Assembly (NCBI GenBank): GCA_002293825.1
Contig: DBDW01000011.1
Location: 9,436 to 73,435, forward strand
Reading direction: 5' to 3'
DNA from: Candidatus Magasanikbacteria bacterium UBA922
GTDB lineage: Bacteria > Patescibacteriota > Patescibacteriia > Magasanikbacterales > UBA922
Length of the DNA: 64,000 nt
The notes beneath the pieces are model-generated. The model saw only the letters and a list, made by a program, of their open reading frames with translations, had not been told where the DNA came from and made no database searches. Positions 5,592 to 60,775 of the stretch are shown in pieces (position 1 is the stretch's first letter; each line of letters opens with the position of its first letter). The translations under genes were made by a program, and so were the position numbers.

Positions 5592-6116
5592 TTAAGCTGT
5601 TTTAGTATCTTTGATTGCATTAAGTGCGGTCACAAGTCCGCGGATATTTCCAGCAAGTACATTCACAAATCCAGATACTGGAGCATTGAGTGTACCGACC
5701 AATTGTCCGAGAAGTTGTTGCTTGTTTGGCAATTGTGACAATGCAGTTACTTTAGCACCATCGATAAATGCACCTTCGAGAATACCACCGAAGAGTTTTA
5801 CCGCTTCGTGAGTTTTCGCAAAATTTGCAAGAATCTGTGCAGGAGCAACCTCATCATTCAATCCAAATACGACAGACACAGCACCATCGAAACTTTTCGG
5901 ATCAGCTTCGATTCCAGCATCTTTGAGCGCACGCGCGACCAAGGTTTTCTTGGCAGCAACATACGAGACACCTTCTTTTCGGCACAATCGTCGAAGTTCT
6001 TCTGATTCTTTCACTTTGAGGCCCTGGAAGTTGGCAAATACGACCGACTTCGATTGCTTCATGGAGTCAACCAGGATACTAAACGCCTGTTCTTTTTGTT
6101 CTCTGGTTTTTGGCAT
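5592..6116 (-). CDS. rplJ: 50S ribosomal protein L10
   Basis: 174 aa L10 fold immediately upstream of rplL. Classical rplJ-rplL arrangement. Confidence 0.93.
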   Translation of the reverse strand: MPKTREQKEQAFSILVDSMKQSKSVVFANFQGLKVKESEELRRLCRKEGVSYVAAKKTLVARALKDAGIEADPKSFDGAVSVVFGLNDEVAPAQILANFAKTHEAVKLFGGILEGAFIDGAKVTALSQLPNKQQLLGQLVGTLNAPVSGFVNVLAGNIRGLVTALNAIKDTKTA

Positions 6117-6250
6117 ACAGAGTAATAAAAAATGTGGTTTTTTGAACCACAGACTTTTTCGGTATAACTCGACCTTTACCCGGTCGAATGACCGGATACG
6201 TGTTACCTCGGTAGCATATTTAATCCTCCAAATCAGAGGAAGCTACTGTC
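6117..6250 (-). promoter_or_regulatory. putative L10 (rplJ) leader, structured 5' UTR
   Basis: About 135-nt untranslated leader between the predicted promoter and the rplJ ATG. It contains hairpins (ccggtcattcgaccgg; tgtggttcaaaaaaccaca). The position matches the autoregulatory L10 leader. Assigned by position and structure only. Confidence 0.3.
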
Positions 6251-6253
6251 TAT

Positions 6254-6282
6254 GGTGAGAAGATAATACCAAGAAAAAAGAC
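6254..6282 (-). promoter_or_regulatory. consensus sigma70-type promoter for rplJ-rplL (TTGACA-17-TATTAT)
   Basis: Minus strand reads TTGACAgacgtcttttttcttggTATTAT. The -35 is perfect and the spacer is 17 bp. Confidence 0.5.
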
Positions 6283-6349
6283 GTCTGTCAAGTAATAAAA
6301 CCAATTGCTTAAAATAAGCTCCGCATAGCAAAAAAACAACGTCCTACAC

Positions 6350-6378
6350 TTGACAAAAAGGCTTAAATATGCTATTAT
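6350..6378 (+). promoter_or_regulatory. consensus sigma70-type promoter (TTGACA-17-TATTAT) driving the high-GC glycosyltransferase
   Basis: Plus strand reads TTGACAaaaaggcttaaatatgcTATTAT. It is divergent from the rplJ promoter and 67 bp from it. Confidence 0.5.
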
Positions 6379-6493
6379 ATACGGTTCACCATAGCGTGGT
6401 GGGCCGTCCCAAAATGCCTCAAATGGGTACCAAAGGATAAAGTGTCTAAGAACTTCCAAAAGCCCTTAAGAGGGGTCAAAAGGAGCACGCATC

Positions 6494-7267
6494 ATGCGTG
6501 ACAAGCTCGCCGCTACGGCGGCCATCGTTCGTTCGTTCAACAACAAACACGTCGAGAAGCAGGTCCGGAACCTCCGCAACGCCGGCATCAGCCGGGTGAT
6601 CGTCGTGTCCGACGCCACCCGTGACAAGGGTGCGACCCGTGGGTTCCTCGCGGGCCTCCTCGAGAGCGGCAACGTGCAGCTCATCGAGATGCACGAAGGG
6701 TACTCGTGGTCGAACGCCCTCAACATCGCCTTGAAGGCGGTGCTGATGGCGAACATCAGGACGCGGAACCAGTTCCGCTTCATCCTGAACGTTTCTGTGG
6801 AAGCGCAGTTCACGAGCACCCACCTCGAGACCATGCTCGATGCGGCGACCAACGACCTGTCGATCGGGGTCGTCGGAACCTCCTTCCAAGGGAAGCAGGA
6901 CGGCAACGTCATCTCCCTGGGCAGATCCTACCGCCACCCCCGAAATACGGGGATGCTGATCCGGATCGAAGCGTTCGGTCCGATGATGGGCGGCTTCGAC
7001 GCGCGCTGTGACTCGATCGGTGGGATGGAGGACATCGACTACATTCTCGGCATGTTGTCGGTGAGTAACTTCACCTACAAGATGCTGGACCTCCAGGTCC
7101 CACTCGTGGTCGGTGCAAACTACCACCAGCCGACCAAGGAGAAGAACGAGCAGGCGGCGATGGACAAGATCATCGCCCACTGGCTCGGGCTCTTCCCCGT
7201 CGGCACCAACGAGCGCCAGCGGATCGAGGACGCCATCTCGAAGATGGCTCTCGACCACCGCGACTAG
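6494..7267 (+). CDS. family-2 (GT-A fold) glycosyltransferase encoded by a ~65% GC, GC3-rich gene; compositionally foreign
   Basis: Strong SD (AAGGAG, 9 nt before the ATG). GT2 motifs are present: AAIVRSFNN resembles SIVIPTYN; RVIVVSDATRDKG resembles VVDDGSTDGT; SWSNALNIALKAV resembles GKGAALNAG; GGFDAR...GMEDIDYILGM resembles GGFDE...EDxDLxxR. Two terminators follow. Codon usage is of high-GC actinobacterial style. Confidence 0.75.
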   Translation: MRDKLAATAAIVRSFNNKHVEKQVRNLRNAGISRVIVVSDATRDKGATRGFLAGLLESGNVQLIEMHEGYSWSNALNIALKAVLMANIRTRNQFRFILNVSVEAQFTSTHLETMLDAATNDLSIGVVGTSFQGKQDGNVISLGRSYRHPRNTGMLIRIEAFGPMMGGFDARCDSIGGMEDIDYILGMLSVSNFTYKMLDLQVPLVVGANYHQPTKEKNEQAAMDKIIAHWLGLFPVGTNERQRIEDAISKMALDHRD

Positions 7268-7283
7268 CCGAATAAAACGGCAC

Positions 7284-7321
7284 GCCCTGTACTCACACGA
7301 GTACAGGGCTTCTTCATTTTT
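7284..7321 (+). terminator. rho-independent terminator (GCCCTGTACTC-acac-GAGTACAGGGC + TTCTTCATTTTT)
   Basis: 11-bp perfect GC-rich stem and a T-tract, 17 nt after the stop codon. Confidence 0.7.
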
Positions 7322-7329
7322 AGAAAACA

Positions 7330-7356
7330 AAAAATCGCCTTCTGGCGATTTTTATT
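7330..7356. terminator. second, bidirectional terminator (AAAATCGCC-ttct-GGCGATTTT)
   Basis: Stem flanked by A/T runs on both strands. It also serves the convergent minus-strand lipoprotein gene. Confidence 0.6.
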
Positions 7357-7369
7357 GTAGCGCTACGGG
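7357..7369 (-). repeat. 13-bp direct repeat identical to the 3' end of tRNA-Glu (putative attachment-site remnant)
   Basis: gtagcgctacggg at 7357-7369 equals 8455-8467 (last 12 nt of tRNA-Glu plus 1 nt). A chance 13-mer match in this window is expected about 0.002 times. Confidence 0.5.
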
Positions 7370-7507
7370 AACAAGATCTTGAAACCCTGGTGTAAGTGCC
7401 AACACAAATATGGATATCACCTGGTGCACAAAAATTAATTCAGCCAGCTAAAGATGATGCAAAGTCGTTCCAATTCGCTTGAGTCTTCGAAAAATCGAAG
7501 ACCTACG

Positions 7508-8077
7508 TTACTGTGCATTCCATGCATTCAATACTTCCTCATCAATAGGTCGTCGCATCTTTCGAATAGAACCATTTTCAACCCATGTAAGGACTGGTGC
7601 AGTGCGTGGAGTAAAAGTGTTTTCAATGAGATACGTGTATACCGGAACAAGTGCTTTTCCATCAGCCATCTGATACAGACTTGTAAGAGCGCTGAAAGTT
7701 TTGTCTGTGCTCCAAGCATTATATGAGAGACCAATGAATGGCACTCCTTCTGAATTAGTAAATACTCGATACGATTCTGGAGTTGGAGCATACGCATACC
7801 CAAGTGACTTGTAATGCTCAAGGAGTATAGAAAAATCATTGTTCGCAGCAATCGACGTCTCTATAAGTTTAATTGTCGATGTTGCTGCGATAGTTGCACC
7901 ACCACGAATATCATCATAATTTGCATATGATGGAACCTCGTCTGCACGCCAAGTTTCAATTTCTAGATCACTATTCGATGTATTGAGGGATGCAGCCTCA
8001 GGTGTTTTCGGTTCTAAACCACAACCAGTTAGTAACACGAGTAAGACAAGTAGTGAAACAGTGGAGATGAAACGCAT
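7508..8077 (-). CDS. hypothetical lipoprotein
   Basis: Signal peptide with lipobox LLTGC (MRFISTVSLLVLLVLLTGCG). 189 aa. Confidence 0.55.
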   Translation of the reverse strand: MRFISTVSLLVLLVLLTGCGLEPKTPEAASLNTSNSDLEIETWRADEVPSYANYDDIRGGATIAATSTIKLIETSIAANNDFSILLEHYKSLGYAYAPTPESYRVFTNSEGVPFIGLSYNAWSTDKTFSALTSLYQMADGKALVPVYTYLIENTFTPRTAPVLTWVENGSIRKMRRPIDEEVLNAWNAQ

Positions 8078-8083
8078 AATAGT

Positions 8084-8452
8084 CTAGTTAGATATGGAAG
8101 TGATTTGATCAGGTATCCCTGAGTCAACAATGTTGGGATGGGGACGTGTTGTCTCAGCGTCAACCATTCCAACGAACGCACGAACGAAACCTGAAAGTTC
8201 GACCAAGATCTTCATTCGTTCCTCATGCAATAAATTCGGATAAGCTTTCGTGAGTTTCTCTTGAATCTCTAGATTGTCAAAATCAAGATGCGGCATACTG
8301 AGTTGAGTGTAATACTCGAAAACCATGCAGTCAAGGGTCCACGGGGAATCGGACAACTCATAGTTCAATCTAGCGGAGGTCAATTTGAAAAAGTCCGAGC
8401 GAAAACGAAAACATCGCTCGGTTGAGCGATGTTTTCGAGGGAATTTCCCCAT
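8084..8452 (-). CDS. hypothetical protein (true start probably internal, near MVFEYYTQ)
   Basis: ORF present. However its first ~28 codons cover a perfect 13-bp terminator hairpin (8402-8431) that follows tRNA-Glu. The N-terminus is therefore likely over-called. Confidence 0.35.
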   Translation of the reverse strand: MGKFPRKHRSTERCFRFRSDFFKLTSARLNYELSDSPWTLDCMVFEYYTQLSMPHLDFDNLEIQEKLTKAYPNLLHEERMKILVELSGFVRAFVGMVDAETTRPHPNIVDSGIPDQITSISN

Positions 8453-8455
8453 GAG

Positions 8456-8527
8456 TAGCGCTACGGGGAATCGAACCCCGGTTACCAGGATGAAAACCTG
8501 ATGTCCTAACCACTAGACGATAGCGCC
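8456..8527 (-). tRNA. tRNA-Glu (anticodon UUC)
   Basis: Cloverleaf read manually: GGCGCTA acceptor stem, anticodon loop TTTTCAT, T-loop GGTTCGATTCC. The CCA end is not encoded. 72 nt. Confidence 0.88.
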
Positions 8528-8528
8528 A

Positions 8529-8822
8529 TTAAAAAATTCTATTGTATAACTCTTCTTTCTTTTTACTATTTTTCTTCAACTCAATTTCTCGTTTCCGAGC
8601 TTGAGTCTTTGAAAGATACGCCTCATAATAAACCAATCTAAACGGAACTTTGTGCTTGATTGATTTTGTCTTCCCTTGATTATGCTCTACCAATCTTCTT
8701 CTCAAATCTTCAGTAGAACCGATATACACAGTCCGATCTTGAAGACTTTCGATAACATATGTATAAAACATAGCTCCCTCTATAGTAACAGGTACACAGG
8801 ATGTCAGCCAGAGGCTGATCAC
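8529..8822 (-). CDS. GIY-YIG nuclease family protein (UPF0213-like small endonuclease)
   Basis: ...MFYTYVIESLQDRTVYIGSTEDLRRRLVEHNQG...FRLVYYEAY...REIELKK are classical GIY-YIG motifs. The probable start is the internal Met at 8771. Confidence 0.8.
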   Translation of the reverse strand: MISLWLTSCVPVTIEGAMFYTYVIESLQDRTVYIGSTEDLRRRLVEHNQGKTKSIKHKVPFRLVYYEAYLSKTQARKREIELKKNSKKKEELYNRIF

Positions 8823-8833
8823 CCTTCGGGTGA

Positions 8834-8870
8834 AAAACCTGATGTCCTAACCACTAGACGATAGCACCAT
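8834..8870 (-). repeat. 37-bp partial duplicate of the 5' part of tRNA-Glu (1 mismatch), upstream of the GIY-YIG gene
   Basis: 8834-8870 matches 8493-8529 (aaaacctgatgtcctaaccactagacgatagc[g/a]ccat). It covers the 5' acceptor strand, D-arm and anticodon-stem 5' side. Confidence 0.7.
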
Positions 8871-8977
8871 AACTTGGTAGCAAAAAGTATAGTAAAAAAG
8901 ATAAATCTTGTCAACATACACCTCATAAAAAGCAAAACGGGTACGGTGCAGATGCAACACATACCCGAACGAAGTCA

Positions 8978-9247
8978 TCAAATACCCTCTATATCGTCCC
9001 CCATTTCTCTGGGAGGCAGATAGGGTCCCCGATCGAAGGCAGTCCTCAGCTCACGACGCCCGACATACAGGCCGATCCCACTCAGAAGAAGAATCGCGAC
9101 ACACACCACCTTCGCATACGCACTGTCGACAACGATAATGCCGATCAGAGCAAAGATGATGAAGAGAACAAAAACCCAAGACAACTTGTAATATTTCACT
9201 GACGAAACCCTCCAGTCCTCGATAGTGAGGACAGACGAATATAGCAC
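8978..9247 (-). CDS. small 2-TM membrane protein (hypothetical), locally elevated GC (~50%)
   Basis: 89 aa with two hydrophobic helices. GC content is noticeably higher than in flanking DNA. Confidence 0.35.
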   Translation of the reverse strand: MLYSSVLTIEDWRVSSVKYYKLSWVFVLFIIFALIGIIVVDSAYAKVVCVAILLLSGIGLYVGRRELRTAFDRGPYLPPREMGDDIEGI

Positions 9248-48746: not shown

Positions 48747-48834
48747 GGAGAGGTGGCTGAGCGGTTGAAGGCGGCAGTCTTGAAAACTGTTGTAGGCTTT
48801 TAGTCTACCGTGGGTTCGAATCCCACCCTCTCCG
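48747..48834 (+). tRNA. tRNA-Ser (anticodon UGA)
   Basis: Class II tRNA with long variable arm. Acceptor GGAGAGG/CCTCTCC with G73. Anticodon loop CTTGAAA. Confidence 0.85.
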
Positions 48835-48883
48835 CACAAAAGACAATATTGTGGTACGTTTCAGTATACGCTATTGGCAAAAT

Positions 48884-48972
48884 GGAGAGGTGTCAGAGTG
48901 GTCTATCGTGCAGCTTTGCTAAAGCTGTGTCCGAATAATATCGGACCGAGGGTTCGAATCCCTCCCTCTCCG
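48884..48972 (+). tRNA. tRNA-Ser (anticodon GCU)
   Basis: Same acceptor stem. Anticodon loop TTGCTAA. Long variable arm. Confidence 0.85.
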
Positions 48973-49001
48973 CATGGAGAAAAACGCTACTACACGACAA
49001 T

Positions 49002-49088
49002 GGAGAGGTGGTTGAGTGGTTGAAAACAGCAGTTTACTAAACTGCCGTCCCTTTCGGGGGACCGTGGGTTCGAATCCCACCCTCTCCG
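49002..49088 (+). tRNA. tRNA-Ser-like, unusual anticodon loop TTACTAA (anticodon ACU)
   Basis: Same acceptor stem, G73 and long variable arm. The anticodon stem GCAGT/ACTGC gives a 7-nt loop TTACTAA. It differs from the GCU gene's loop by G34 to A34. Confidence 0.65.
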
Positions 49089-49173
49089 CACAGATAGACA
49101 GTATCCACCATTTGGCATACTGTCTTTTTTTTAGTATAGTAAAAATCCACTTGGATCACATAATACCTCTTAT

Positions 49174-60512: not shown

Positions 60513-60536
60513 GTCATTCCCGCGAAAGCGGGAATC
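60513..60536. repeat. 24-bp terminal inverted repeat, left copy (GTCATTCCCGCGAAAGCGGGAATC; itself a hairpin)
   Basis: Exact reverse-complement copy at 60752-60775. Confidence 0.7.
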
Positions 60537-60541
60537 CTCAT

Positions 60542-60737
60542 TTAAGAAGCACGGTCCAGCCAATTTGGATTTTCCTTTTCAATAAGCGAAATTTTCCACG
60601 TTCGATTCCATTTCTTCAGCTGTTTCTCTCGAAAAATACTTATGTTCAGTAACTCGCCGCTGTAAATCATTAGTCATACCAATATACAAAACACCATTTT
60701 TTCTACTTGCCAATATATAAACATAAAAATATCTCAT
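60542..60737 (-). pseudogene. degenerate GIY-YIG nuclease gene (frameshifted, internally deleted)
   Basis: Manual translation gives MRYFYVYILASRKNGVLYIGMTNDLQRRVTEHKYFSRETAEEMESNVENFAY*. After a -1 shift it reads LIEKENPNWLDRAS*. This is a GIY-YIG core plus the family C-terminal tail, but it lacks the central ~20 aa. Confidence 0.6.
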
Positions 60738-60751
60738 ACCCCTCCAAATTA

Positions 60752-60775
60752 GATTCCCGCTTTCGCGGGAATGAC
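60752..60775. repeat. 24-bp terminal inverted repeat, right copy (GATTCCCGCTTTCGCGGGAATGAC)
   Basis: Reverse complement of 60513-60536. Confidence 0.7.

Follow-up and report, generated by a model that had tools for sequence, protein, structure and literature searches.

A cassette encoding a predicted minimal GIY-YIG nuclease as a putative parasite of tRNA-Glu genes in candidate-phyla-radiation and Bacteroidota genomes

Analysis of a 64,000-nt stretch of contig DBDW01000011.1 of Candidatus Magasanikbacteria bacterium UBA922 (hereafter the window) has revealed a 341-bp cassette, encoding a GIY-YIG protein of only 80 residues, between the promoter of tRNA-Glu and the tRNA itself, with a crippled copy of the front part of the tRNA left behind that carries a 30-nt double hairpin. 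The same design recurs in dozens of candidate-phyla-radiation (CPR) and Bacteroidota genomes, while sister genomes lack it, and full-text literature searches, which covered open-access papers only, returned no description of a GIY-YIG/tRNA-Glu/hairpin cassette in bacteria. We favor, with reasonable but not firm confidence, the reading that this is a tRNA-gene-specific selfish cassette that keeps an intact tRNA and uses its promoter, with nuclease-driven homing being inferred rather than demonstrated.

Results

The original prediction described a GIY-YIG endonuclease gene lying exactly between tRNA-Glu and a 37-bp duplicate of the tRNA 5' portion with one mismatch, and this observation proved to be real. 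Both ARAGORN and Rfam identified tRNA-Glu(UUC) at 8455-8527 on the minus strand (Rfam tRNA 64.5 bits), the only tRNA-Glu in the window, and a repeat search yielded a 37-nt direct repeat, 8493-8529 vs. 8834-8870, at 97% identity (36/37). No comparable match to the tRNA occurs elsewhere in the 64-kb window, where only short fragments of 13 nt (7357-7369) and 11 nt (8341-8351, extended on reading of the sequence to a 16-nt match at 8339-8354) were found. The ORF at 8771-8529 (minus strand) most likely begins with the ATG at 8771 and comprises 80 residues, with its TAA stop codon at 8531-8529 ending one base before the tRNA. Two corrections to the original description are warranted. First, the upstream copy is longer than had been proposed: the segment at 8834-8870 (minus strand), comprising 2 nt of leader plus tRNA positions 1-35 (acceptor 5' strand, D arm, anticodon stem 5' side and the first four loop bases), is followed by a 30-nt insert of two hairpins at 8833-8804 and then by resumed tRNA homology, CATCCTG at 8803-8797, corresponding to positions 36-42 (rest of the anticodon loop and 3' side of the anticodon stem). 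The copy therefore covers tRNA positions -2 to 42, scoring 21.5 bits as a tRNA in Rfam, and in other loci this homology runs on to positions 43-54. Second, the ORF is not flush with the upstream copy, as 62 nt lie between the 37-nt repeat and the ATG, comprising the 30-nt hairpins, the 7 nt of tRNA 36-42 and a 25-nt spacer (8772-8796) that contains the ribosome-binding site GAGGGAG (8780-8774) and is poorly conserved between the window and L007, a second locus with the cassette (designations with the prefix L denote the loci compared in this study).

The original prediction had missed the double hairpin, the tRNA homology that resumes after it, the promoter upstream of the partial copy and a 13-nt copy of the tRNA 3' end. 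A sigma-70-type promoter, TTGACA-17-TATACT at 8886-8914 (minus strand; 11 of 12 consensus positions), is the only strong promoter in 8300-9050; it is the native tRNA-Glu promoter and now abuts the truncated copy. An intrinsic terminator with a 14-bp stem followed by a T-run (8406-8437, minus strand) closes the promoter-truncated copy-ORF-tRNA unit, and with one strong promoter and one terminator we infer that the ORF and the tRNA are co-transcribed; in L007 and L008 the ORF reads into the tRNA. Downstream, a 16-nt T-arm fragment, GTCCGATTCCCCGTGG (8339-8354, minus strand), matches the tRNA-Glu variant of sister lineages (L145, L149, L151) and not the tRNA of the window itself, with a related fragment at the equivalent place in L007. 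A 13-nt copy of the tRNA-Glu 3' end, CCCGTAGCGCTAC (7357-7369, minus strand), lies 1.1 kb downstream and is followed by a terminator (about 7334-7349), after which the syntenic gene order of the empty alleles resumes.

The double-hairpin element (8804-8833, minus strand) consists of TCACCCgaaGGGTGA followed by TCAGCCtctGGCTGA, inserted between positions 35 and 36 of the truncated tRNA copy, and is the only element of this kind in the window. Two adjacent, short, G+C-rich stem-loops conserved in structure were recognized across loci, with 86 unique double hairpins counted. Both hairpins are 100% paired in 19 loci, six pairs show changes on both sides, and 0 of 500 shuffles reached the observed score, indicating that the stems covary. 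Nearly all pairs are Watson-Crick, so that G.T wobble counts did not discriminate between an RNA and a DNA role. The leader folds better than shuffled sequence (z = -2.5 as RNA, -3.2 as DNA).

To find out whether the cassette is a discrete insertion, we looked for orthologous sites without it. An exact search of metagenome contigs with the 21-nt leader gave 0 hits, and TsaD relatives in metagenome contigs were at most 53% identical and gave no close relatives, but TsaD homologues in the protein collection, together with their contigs, yielded six sister genomes (L143, L145, L147, L149, L151 and L152; TsaD 75-79% identical; synteny L12-L10-x-tRNA-Glu-TsaD-DnaE). In these genomes the same promoter and leader are joined directly to an intact tRNA-Glu, with no GIY-YIG gene, no truncated copy and no hairpin, and the tRNA of L143 is 73/73 identical to that of the window. 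Two filled and six empty genomes thus occur in one clade, constituting an insertion/deletion polymorphism bounded by the repeat, and the filled genomes (the window and L007) are not sisters on a TsaD tree. The partial copy occupies the native position next to the leader. The population of the window is also represented in the metagenomes JGI 3300014773 and SRR5325111.

Among 82 loci encoding relatives of the protein, 72 have an adjacent tRNA, mostly tRNA-Glu, 54 have a same-strand tRNA within 50 nt of the stop codon (48 of them tRNA-Glu), and 62 have a double hairpin within 250 nt; in L028 the adjacent tRNA is interrupted. With the same arrangement present in about 50 independent loci from different phyla, chance is excluded. 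The design recurs across many CPR/Patescibacteria classes and Bacteroidota, with variants on tRNA-Ala, Asp, Cys, Leu and Tyr, so that six tRNA species are represented, and Cytophagales carry a mirror-image 3' version. Tandem arrays exist, for example in Marivirga; L037 has at least five units with a 383-bp period, and L038, L065, L071, L055 and L056 also carry arrays. The truncated copy follows its own tRNA, with an average identity of 33.9/35 vs. 30.2/35 to the tRNAs of other loci and 18 of 28 being perfect, although synonymous sites of the ORF are saturated (dS 1.1-2.0). The original prediction would have been undermined had the upstream copy belonged to a different, degraded tRNA gene, but this covariation with the resident tRNA indicates a duplicate of the same tRNA-Glu. 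In four loci (L014, L032, L043 and L058) the truncated copy carries a foreign acceptor strand, whereas in the window the two duplicates differ at 1 of 37 positions.

The protein matches the Pfam GIY-YIG profile (PF01541, E = 1e-16, 61.4 bits vs. a cut-off of 22.6), and Y5, Y16, I17, G18, R26, N31 and E62 are invariant in 47 sequences, with H30 and N68 at least 90% conserved; the two motif tyrosines, an arginine and the metal-binding glutamate are therefore retained. An AlphaFold2 model (pLDDT 97.8) predicts the alpha/beta fold with a three-stranded sheet, for which Foldseek returned 1ZG2, Slx1, I-TevI and UvrC. The closest relatives in sequence (1ZG2, E = 6e-12; 1YWL, E = 1e-8) and predicted structure (query-normalised TM-score of 0.65-0.72 for Slx1 vs. 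0.47 for I-TevI) are UPF0213 and Slx1, in keeping with a minimal stand-alone domain without accessory domains. The C-terminal DNA-binding domain that gives site specificity to classical homing enzymes of the I-TevI and Seg type is absent, and NCBIfam TIGR01453 scored 24 bits vs. a cut-off of 56. With dN/dS of 0.05-0.09 against L007 and L008, an active enzyme is likely, albeit inferred from sequence and model alone. Searches for a vector revealed one weak viral contig and nothing in the phage and plasmid collections, while defence-system and phage-family libraries gave only weak motif-level hits.

Other identities were considered and ruled out. A group I or other intron in the anticodon loop was rejected because Rfam at E <= 1 finds only tRNA, an uninterrupted tRNA follows the ORF and the insert apart from the ORF is under 100 nt. 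A split or alternative tRNA 5' half was rejected because the truncated copy has no 3' partner. tRNA genes are common integration sites and leave partial tRNA copies (bioRxiv 10.1101/2022.07.05.498093), and the 13-nt copy of the tRNA 3' end would fit a remnant of an integrase-mediated island; however, no integrase or other recombinase lies in the flanks, the duplicated part is the 5' part, the insert is only 341 bp and the arrangement recurs with the same nuclease family and the same hairpin, making such a remnant, or a decaying tandem tRNA duplicate that happens to have a GIY-YIG gene beside it, very unlikely.

Discussion

The original interpretation, that a homing endonuclease had inserted with target duplication or co-conversion, is only partly supported by our data. 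The ORF plus the duplicated tRNA part is indeed a discrete insertion relative to empty sites, but classical homing does not create target duplications, the enzyme is a minimal Slx1/UPF0213-like domain rather than an I-TevI-type homing enzyme, and the phage analogy that had been drawn does not share the architecture. What our comparison establishes is that, relative to empty orthologous sites, 341 bp (the double hairpin, tRNA positions 36-42, a spacer, the ORF and a second copy of leader-AT plus tRNA 1-35) are inserted between the native promoter/leader and the tRNA, that the native promoter is consequently followed by a truncated, hairpin-interrupted tRNA copy, then the ORF, an intact tRNA and a terminator, and that this design recurs across phyla, on other tRNAs and in arrays. 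Beyond this, we infer that the ORF is expressed by read-through from the tRNA promoter and separated from the tRNA by RNase P processing, and that the Slx1-like nuclease cuts cassette-free tRNA-Glu DNA in or near the cloverleaf loops, with the break being repaired from a filled allele for which the truncated copy and the intact tRNA serve as homology arms, thereby copying the cassette and restoring it after loss. In this view, recombination between the 37-nt repeats would give precise loss, the double hairpin would mark and disrupt the cut site in the truncated copy or would be the structure bound by the nuclease, and retention of one intact tRNA would render insertion into an essential single-copy gene survivable. 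The chimeric copies and the sister-lineage T-arm fragment both point to exchange between lineages, and the occurrence on six tRNA species to target switching.

A number of findings sit uneasily with this model. The protein has no DNA-binding domain, leaving sequence-specific recognition unexplained, and since the intact tRNA of the filled allele is identical to that of an empty allele, a nuclease that recognised the tRNA gene would also cut its own host copy, with the sequence giving no sign of donor immunity. Protein similarity mostly follows host clades, and cassette DNA divergence between the window and L007 (78%) is like that of housekeeping genes (72-80%); vertical descent with repeated precise loss therefore explains the patchiness as well as repeated gain does, and divergence, with saturated synonymous sites, did not decide between the two. 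In addition, nothing that could act as a vector was found in the phage and plasmid collections, and strong long-term purifying selection is unusual for homing endonuclease genes, which normally decay.

Recognizing this selection, we also considered, as an unlikely alternative, that the nuclease is a domesticated host gene, resolving branched DNA or R-loops at a highly transcribed tRNA gene or serving some role in tRNA-Glu metabolism, and kept in the tRNA-Glu operon by selection, with the truncated copy and hairpins acting as a structured leader RNA that controls expression or processing and with absence in relatives reflecting loss. The low dN/dS, the clustering by host clade, the conserved position in one transcription unit with the tRNA, the folding of the leader and the covarying hairpins are in accord with this view, as is a prokaryotic Slx1-like domain fused to a tRNA methyltransferase (Dunin-Horkawicz et al. 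2006, PMC1564403). However, the distribution is patchy even among close relatives, with six of eight genomes of the clade lacking the gene, and arrays of five or more copies, the same architecture on six tRNA species, chimeric truncated copies and mirror-image versions are hallmarks of a selfish element rather than a housekeeping gene.

It is also possible, although doubtful, that the hairpins are the primary mobile element, i.e. that short palindromic mini-elements (15-nt hairpins, 30-nt double hairpins and longer inverted repeats that enclose the ORF) are mobilised by the structure-specific GIY-YIG nuclease encoded next to them, resembling REP sequences and their RAYT transposase or MITEs and their parent transposon, with the truncated tRNA copies being duplicates killed by hairpin insertion into their loops. 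Hairpin inserts occur at several loop positions of truncated copies (D loop, position 8^9, anticodon loop 35^36 and T loop), up to three in one copy (L075, L015, L016, L034), and ORF-less hairpin-bearing copies exist (L016, L034). In the tRNA-Ala/Tyr subfamily and in L076, L083 and L084, 13-22-bp inverted repeats enclose the ORF, and short hairpins with the same end motif occur without an ORF (L081, L087). The predicted fold is closest to Slx1, which processes branched DNA, and a second, degenerate GIY-YIG ORF in the window is flanked by perfect 24-bp hairpin-forming inverted repeats. On the other hand, the single double hairpin in the window argues against genome-wide spread as seen with REP sequences or MITEs, GIY-YIG enzymes are not known to carry out transposition, and this view does not by itself explain the clean 341-bp filled/empty difference, although it can be combined with the model that we favor. 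We also speculate that this may be a new class of bacterial mobile element, in which a minimal Slx1-like nuclease with no DNA-binding domain finds tRNA genes by their DNA structure (extruded cloverleaf or hairpin loops) rather than by sequence, inserts itself and 15-30-nt hairpin mini-elements at loop positions, and survives in an essential single-copy gene by always leaving one intact tRNA beside hairpin-crippled copies; it would be the first bacterial counterpart of mitochondrial double-hairpin elements and the first enzyme linked to them.

If our reading is right, the element would represent a new way to colonise an essential gene, inserting into what may be the only tRNA-Glu gene of small CPR genomes, and also in Bacteroidota, without killing the host, by keeping an intact copy of the tRNA and taking over its promoter. 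It would also provide a candidate enzyme for double-hairpin elements, which have had no known mobility mechanism since the 1990s, and a function for the large family of UPF0213/YhbQ-like minimal GIY-YIG proteins, which have no established role. Truncated tRNA copies next to real tRNAs, with contigs breaking at the repeat, are a pitfall for annotation and assembly. The presence of the cassette in a cultivable organism, Marivirga tractuosa, offers an experimental system, and an 80-residue nuclease that recognises DNA structure, if this is what the protein does, could be of practical interest.

Among known systems, the stand-alone Slx1 and bacterial UPF0213 (YhbQ-like) proteins (PDB 1ZG2, 1YWL; Slx1-Slx4 structures 6SEH, 7CQ2; PMC1564403) are the best sequence and fold matches and are likewise minimal domains without accessory domains, with Slx1 being specific for branched DNA; however, no UPF0213 protein is known to be tied to tRNA genes or to mobile cassettes, and Slx1 needs Slx4 as a partner. 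Free-standing GIY-YIG homing endonucleases of T-even phages, such as SegB in the T4 tRNA gene cluster (PMC2330249; PMC13096335 on SegB-driven amplification), also lie next to tRNA genes and are inherited preferentially by cutting the allele that lacks them, as we infer here, and segmental amplification can follow, but Seg enzymes have a C-terminal DNA-binding domain and leave no partial tRNA duplicate or hairpin, and the present family is absent from the phage collections searched. The double-hairpin elements of fungal mitochondrial genomes (Allomyces, chytrids and Schizosaccharomyces; PMC10085805, citing Paquin & Lang 1996, Paquin et al. 2000 and Bullerwell et al. 2003; DHE-like elements in Candida, PMC4618339) are short G+C-rich elements of two adjacent stem-loops, found in non-coding DNA and in structural RNA genes, suspected to be mobile and conserved across species; they are not reported from bacteria and have no assigned enzyme, and the element described here is 30 nt long and sits at defined loop positions of truncated tRNA copies, typically next to a GIY-YIG gene. 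Together with these elements, the closest analogues are mobile endonuclease ORFs that create gene hybrids in fungal mitochondria, exemplified by Allomyces macrogynus atp6 and Glomus atp6/atp9/cox2/nad3 (Beaudet et al. 2013, PMC3630166, citing Paquin et al. 1994), where a free-standing endonuclease ORF (LAGLIDADG, or GIY-YIG in atp9) is inserted into an essential gene together with a replacement copy of part of that gene, the displaced native part stays next door as a non-functional duplicate, the gene remains functional and co-transcribed with the ORF, and horizontal origin is inferred from sequence differences between the duplicates. Our cassette has this arrangement of an ORF flanked by an intact target gene and a displaced partial duplicate, with co-transcription inferred, but it differs in that the host is bacterial, the target is a tRNA gene, the predicted nuclease is a minimal 80-residue Slx1-like domain, the duplicated part in the window version is the 5' part, which captures the promoter, the duplicates are kept nearly identical rather than diverging, and the displaced copy carries a double hairpin in a loop.

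Organization of the tRNA-Glu locus

Analysis of the minus strand of the window revealed tRNA-Glu(UUC) at 8527-8455 (ARAGORN; Rfam tRNA, 64.5 bits), immediately preceded by an ORF that ends at 8529, one base before the tRNA, and matches Pfam GIY-YIG at E = 1e-16. A 37-nt direct repeat joins 8493-8529, comprising 2 nt of leader plus tRNA positions 1-35, to 8834-8870, with one mismatch. The original prediction, in which a GIY-YIG gene was placed between tRNA-Glu and a 37-bp duplicate of its 5' portion with one mismatch, is therefore a correct description of the locus. However, reading the strand 5' to 3' added a number of features that had been missed: a promoter, TTGACA-17-TATACT, at 8914-8886, matching 11 of 12 consensus positions and the only strong promoter nearby; a 30-nt insert after position 35 of the upstream copy, consisting of two adjacent hairpins, TCACCCgaaGGGTGA and TCAGCCtctGGCTGA (8833-8804); the stretch CATCCTG (8803-8797), corresponding to tRNA positions 36-42; a 25-nt spacer with a GAGGGAG ribosome-binding site, followed by the ATG at 8771; and, after the tRNA, a terminator at 8437-8406. 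The unit thus comprises a promoter, a truncated tRNA copy interrupted by a double hairpin, the predicted nuclease ORF, an intact tRNA and a terminator. In the predicted RNA fold of 8772-8870, the acceptor strand and D-arm region of the truncated copy pair with the spacer and the ribosome-binding site (z = -2.5), and a CTATAGA motif in the spacer is shared with L007 (a second cassette-bearing locus), which may reflect translational control. We also noticed that contigs L002 and L003, which are Logan assemblies of the same population, both start inside the upstream 37-nt repeat (window 8836 and 8841); the repeat therefore breaks short-read assemblies, and such cassettes may be under-assembled.

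Empty sites in related genomes

TsaD lies 870 nt from the tRNA on the other strand, and its homologues at 75-79% identity define the clade of the window, with the nearest named relatives being 'Candidatus' CPR bacteria such as Magasanikbacteria, at 57%. Among the contigs of seven of these relatives, six (designated L143, L145, L147, L149/L150, L151 and L152) keep the synteny L12-L10-x-tRNA-Glu-TsaD-DnaE and have tRNA-Glu(UUC), but have no GIY-YIG gene (tblastn E > 0.1), no truncated copy and no hairpin. In L143, the promoter and leader read ttgacaagtttgatcttttttactatacttttcgctaccaagttat and directly abut a tRNA that is 73/73 identical to that of the window; in the window, the same promoter and leader abut the truncated copy. 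Alignment of two filled and four empty alleles showed one clean gap, 341 bp in the window and 367 bp in L007, bounded by the repeat. The truncated copy therefore sits at the native position, and the inserted DNA is the hairpin, tRNA 36-42, spacer, ORF, and leader-AT plus tRNA 1-35, or a circular permutation of these. On a TsaD neighbour-joining tree, the two filled genomes are not sisters and the empty ones lie between them, requiring at least two gains, or three to four precise losses. Divergence does not tell which, as the cassette is 78% identical between the window and L007 while housekeeping genes are 72-80% identical.

The 3' side of the insertion

After the terminator there is a 16-nt T-arm fragment (8339-8354; L007 4418-4433 at the same place for a related fragment) that matches 16/16 the tRNA-Glu variant of the sister genomes L145, L149 and L151 but differs from the window's own tRNA at two positions; it looks like a fossil of residence in, or exchange with, another lineage. 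About 1.1 kb with two small ORFs (80 and 189 aa, no family matches) follows, and the DNA between the intact tRNA and the 3' copy (7370-8454; 1,085 nt) is absent from the empty alleles. This stretch ends in a 13-nt copy of the tRNA-Glu 3' end (7369-7357) and a terminator, after which the syntenic 257-aa gene of L145 resumes. Either one roughly 1.46-kb element split the native tRNA, or a second insertion hit the 3' end; L151 has an empty 5' side but a flank downstream of its tRNA that resembles the one in the window and L007, and this favours two events. The neighbouring stretch at 6000-8000 is a G+C-rich patch (0.52 and 0.47 vs. about 0.41 elsewhere) with long overlapping ORFs on both strands (6494-7267 on the plus strand and 6476-7330 on the minus strand), of which the plus-strand ORF is syntenic with a 255-aa gene of L145. 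Elsewhere in the window, three tandem tRNA-Ser genes are found at 48747-49089, one of them with the unusual anticodon ACT.

Recurrence of the cassette

Using an alignment of 47 homologues, we retrieved 80 loci from one-genome-per-species bacterial genomes, in which at least 565 stretches encode a relative; with L007 and L008 (another locus with a relative), this makes 82 loci. Of these 82, 54 have a same-strand tRNA within 50 nt of the stop codon (48 are tRNA-Glu), 72 have any adjacent tRNA, 62 have a double hairpin within 250 nt, and about 50 have a truncated 5' copy upstream of the ORF. The hosts are many CPR/Patescibacteria classes (44 loci), Bacteroidota (17 loci, including the complete genome of Marivirga tractuosa) and metagenome-assembled genomes with doubtful labels.

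The hairpin sits at TTTT^CATC, in the anticodon loop at position 35^36, in 49 of 86 unique elements, and no hairpin insert was seen in a tRNA that ARAGORN calls intact. Among the variants, an extra hairpin lies in the D loop, or the double hairpin lies in the D loop, at position 8^9, or in the T loop; a tRNA-Asp locus (L085) has a 58-nt duplicate with the hairpin in the T loop; and tRNA-Cys, Leu, Ala and Tyr loci have their own truncated copies. In the tRNA-Ala/Tyr subfamily and some loci with unknown targets, 13-22-bp inverted repeats enclose the ORF; in the more distant family members L074, L076, L083, L084, L087 and L088, these repeats have ends like CCCCCACAC...GTGTGGGGG, and short ORF-less hairpins with the same ends sit between an 11-nt tRNA start and the full tRNA, while in L076, L083 and L084 the target is not a tRNA that ARAGORN recognises. 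A second association of nuclease and hairpins in the window's own genome was found at 60513-60775, where a GIY-YIG ORF of a different subfamily is present but degenerate, starting MRYFYVYILASRKNGVLYIGMTNDLQRRVTEH with its C-terminal part in another frame, and flanked by a perfect 24-bp inverted repeat, GTCATTCCCGCGAAAGCGGGAATC, each arm of which is itself a hairpin.

In contrast to the arrangement in the window, Cytophagales have a mirror image, in which an intact tRNA-Glu with its terminator comes first, followed by the ORF, a truncated 3' copy (positions 51-73) with the hairpin in the T loop, and then a copy of the terminator. This unit is repeated at a 383-bp period, at least five times in Marivirga; in Marivirga tractuosa ac6 (L037 1183-3237; NZ_CP159478.1, about 2,078,500-2,080,584), a cultivable host for experiments, two tandem tRNA-Glu genes are followed by at least five tandem 383-bp units, each holding the ORF, a T-loop double hairpin, the tRNA 3' end and a terminator. 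In addition, locus L016 has truncated copies on both sides of the tRNA, and fifteen loci also have a copy of the tRNA 3' end downstream of the intact tRNA, usually 50-280 nt away and right after a hairpin. In Moranbacteria GW2011_GWF2_35_54 (L028 1740-1960), the nuclease is 99% identical to that of locus L024, but the tRNA-Glu after it has about 160 nt in place of the T loop and ARAGORN calls no tRNA.

Constraint on the hairpins, the truncated copy and the ORF

Both hairpins are 100% paired in 19 length-matched loci, with six base pairs changing on both sides and a covariation score of 0.239 vs. 0.076 in shuffles (0 of 500 shuffles reach it), while sliding the partners destroys the pairing. 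Over 86 unique elements, stem pairs 3 and 4 switch between A-T, C-G and G-C. The loops of the two hairpins are often complementary, and in some loci the 30 nt form a perfect palindrome. Nearly all pairs are Watson-Crick, so that pairing does not separate an RNA role from a DNA role. The truncated copy matches its own tRNA at 33.9 of 35 positions on average, against 30.2 for tRNAs of other loci, and 18 of 28 are perfect, although the synonymous sites of the ORF are saturated among the window, L007 and L008 (dS 1.1-2.0). The copy is therefore kept in step with the tRNA, by gene conversion or by selection. Mismatches cluster in the acceptor strand, and in loci L014, L032, L043 and L058 that strand is the acceptor strand of a different tRNA-Glu lineage, which suggests exchange between lineages. 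The ORF itself is under strong purifying selection (dN/dS 0.05-0.09).

The predicted nuclease

The protein comprises 80 aa, with an invariant GIY-YIG motif and invariant catalytic residues. The best solved relatives by sequence are the UPF0213 proteins BH0048 (1ZG2, E = 6e-12) and EF2693 (1YWL). An AlphaFold2 model (pLDDT 97.8) matches 1ZG2 and the nuclease domain of Slx1 (TM-score 0.65-0.72), and matches I-TevI (0.47) and UvrC less well; in addition, the group I intron endonuclease model of NCBIfam scores far below its cut-off. Dunin-Horkawicz et al. (PMC1564403) place such stand-alone prokaryotic proteins in the Slx1 family, as the minimal form of the domain. The protein is thus a member of the GIY-YIG superfamily and of its Slx1/UPF0213 branch, but not of the classical homing endonuclease family, which is defined by an added DNA-binding domain.

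Proposed mechanism

Our data establish that the cassette is a discrete insertion in the tRNA-Glu transcription unit, that it is bounded by a duplicate of the tRNA's front part and keeps an intact tRNA, and that it recurs across phyla and on several tRNA species and forms arrays; what follows on expression, cleavage and homing is inferred. We surmise that the ORF is transcribed from the captured tRNA promoter and released when RNase P matures the tRNA; in L007 and L008, the ORF even reads 21 nt into the tRNA. We postulate that the nuclease breaks cassette-free tRNA-Glu DNA, and that repair from a filled allele uses the truncated copy as the left arm and the intact tRNA as the right arm, copying everything between. 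The same reaction would restore a cassette lost by recombination between the repeats, and mis-pairing of the repeats would give arrays. In this view, the hairpin interrupts the truncated copy at the position where a cut is expected, but the intact tRNA, identical in filled and empty alleles, would somehow have to be spared. As to how an 80-aa domain may find tRNA genes, a structure-specific, Slx1-like recognition of extruded hairpins or cloverleaf DNA is attractive, given that the inserts sit in loops and share no sequence motif, but this remains speculation. The original interpretation, that the pattern reflects insertion of a homing endonuclease with target duplication or co-conversion, is thus supported only in part, with the insertion being established but homing being inferred and the protein falling outside the classical homing family.

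Comparison with known systems

The finding is real and much larger than originally recognized, being a widespread tRNA-gene cassette built from a minimal nuclease gene, a hairpin-crippled tRNA copy and an intact tRNA. We found no paper describing this bacterial cassette within the open-access literature searched. Free-standing endonuclease cassettes with partial target duplication are already known, and we regard the present one as a new form of these, with a substantial chance that the recognition and hairpin biology are new. With respect to GIY-YIG genes near tRNAs, T4 SegB is a GIY-YIG homing enzyme in a tRNA cluster (PMC2330249), but it has a DNA-binding domain and leaves no duplicate. The closest match for the hairpin is the mitochondrial double-hairpin element, which is considered potentially mobile and has no known enzyme (PMC10085805 and PMC4618339). 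The closest architecture is the mobile endonuclease ORF of fungal mitochondria, which inserts into atp6, atp9, cox2 or nad3 together with a replacement gene end and leaves the native end as a duplicate (PMC3630166).
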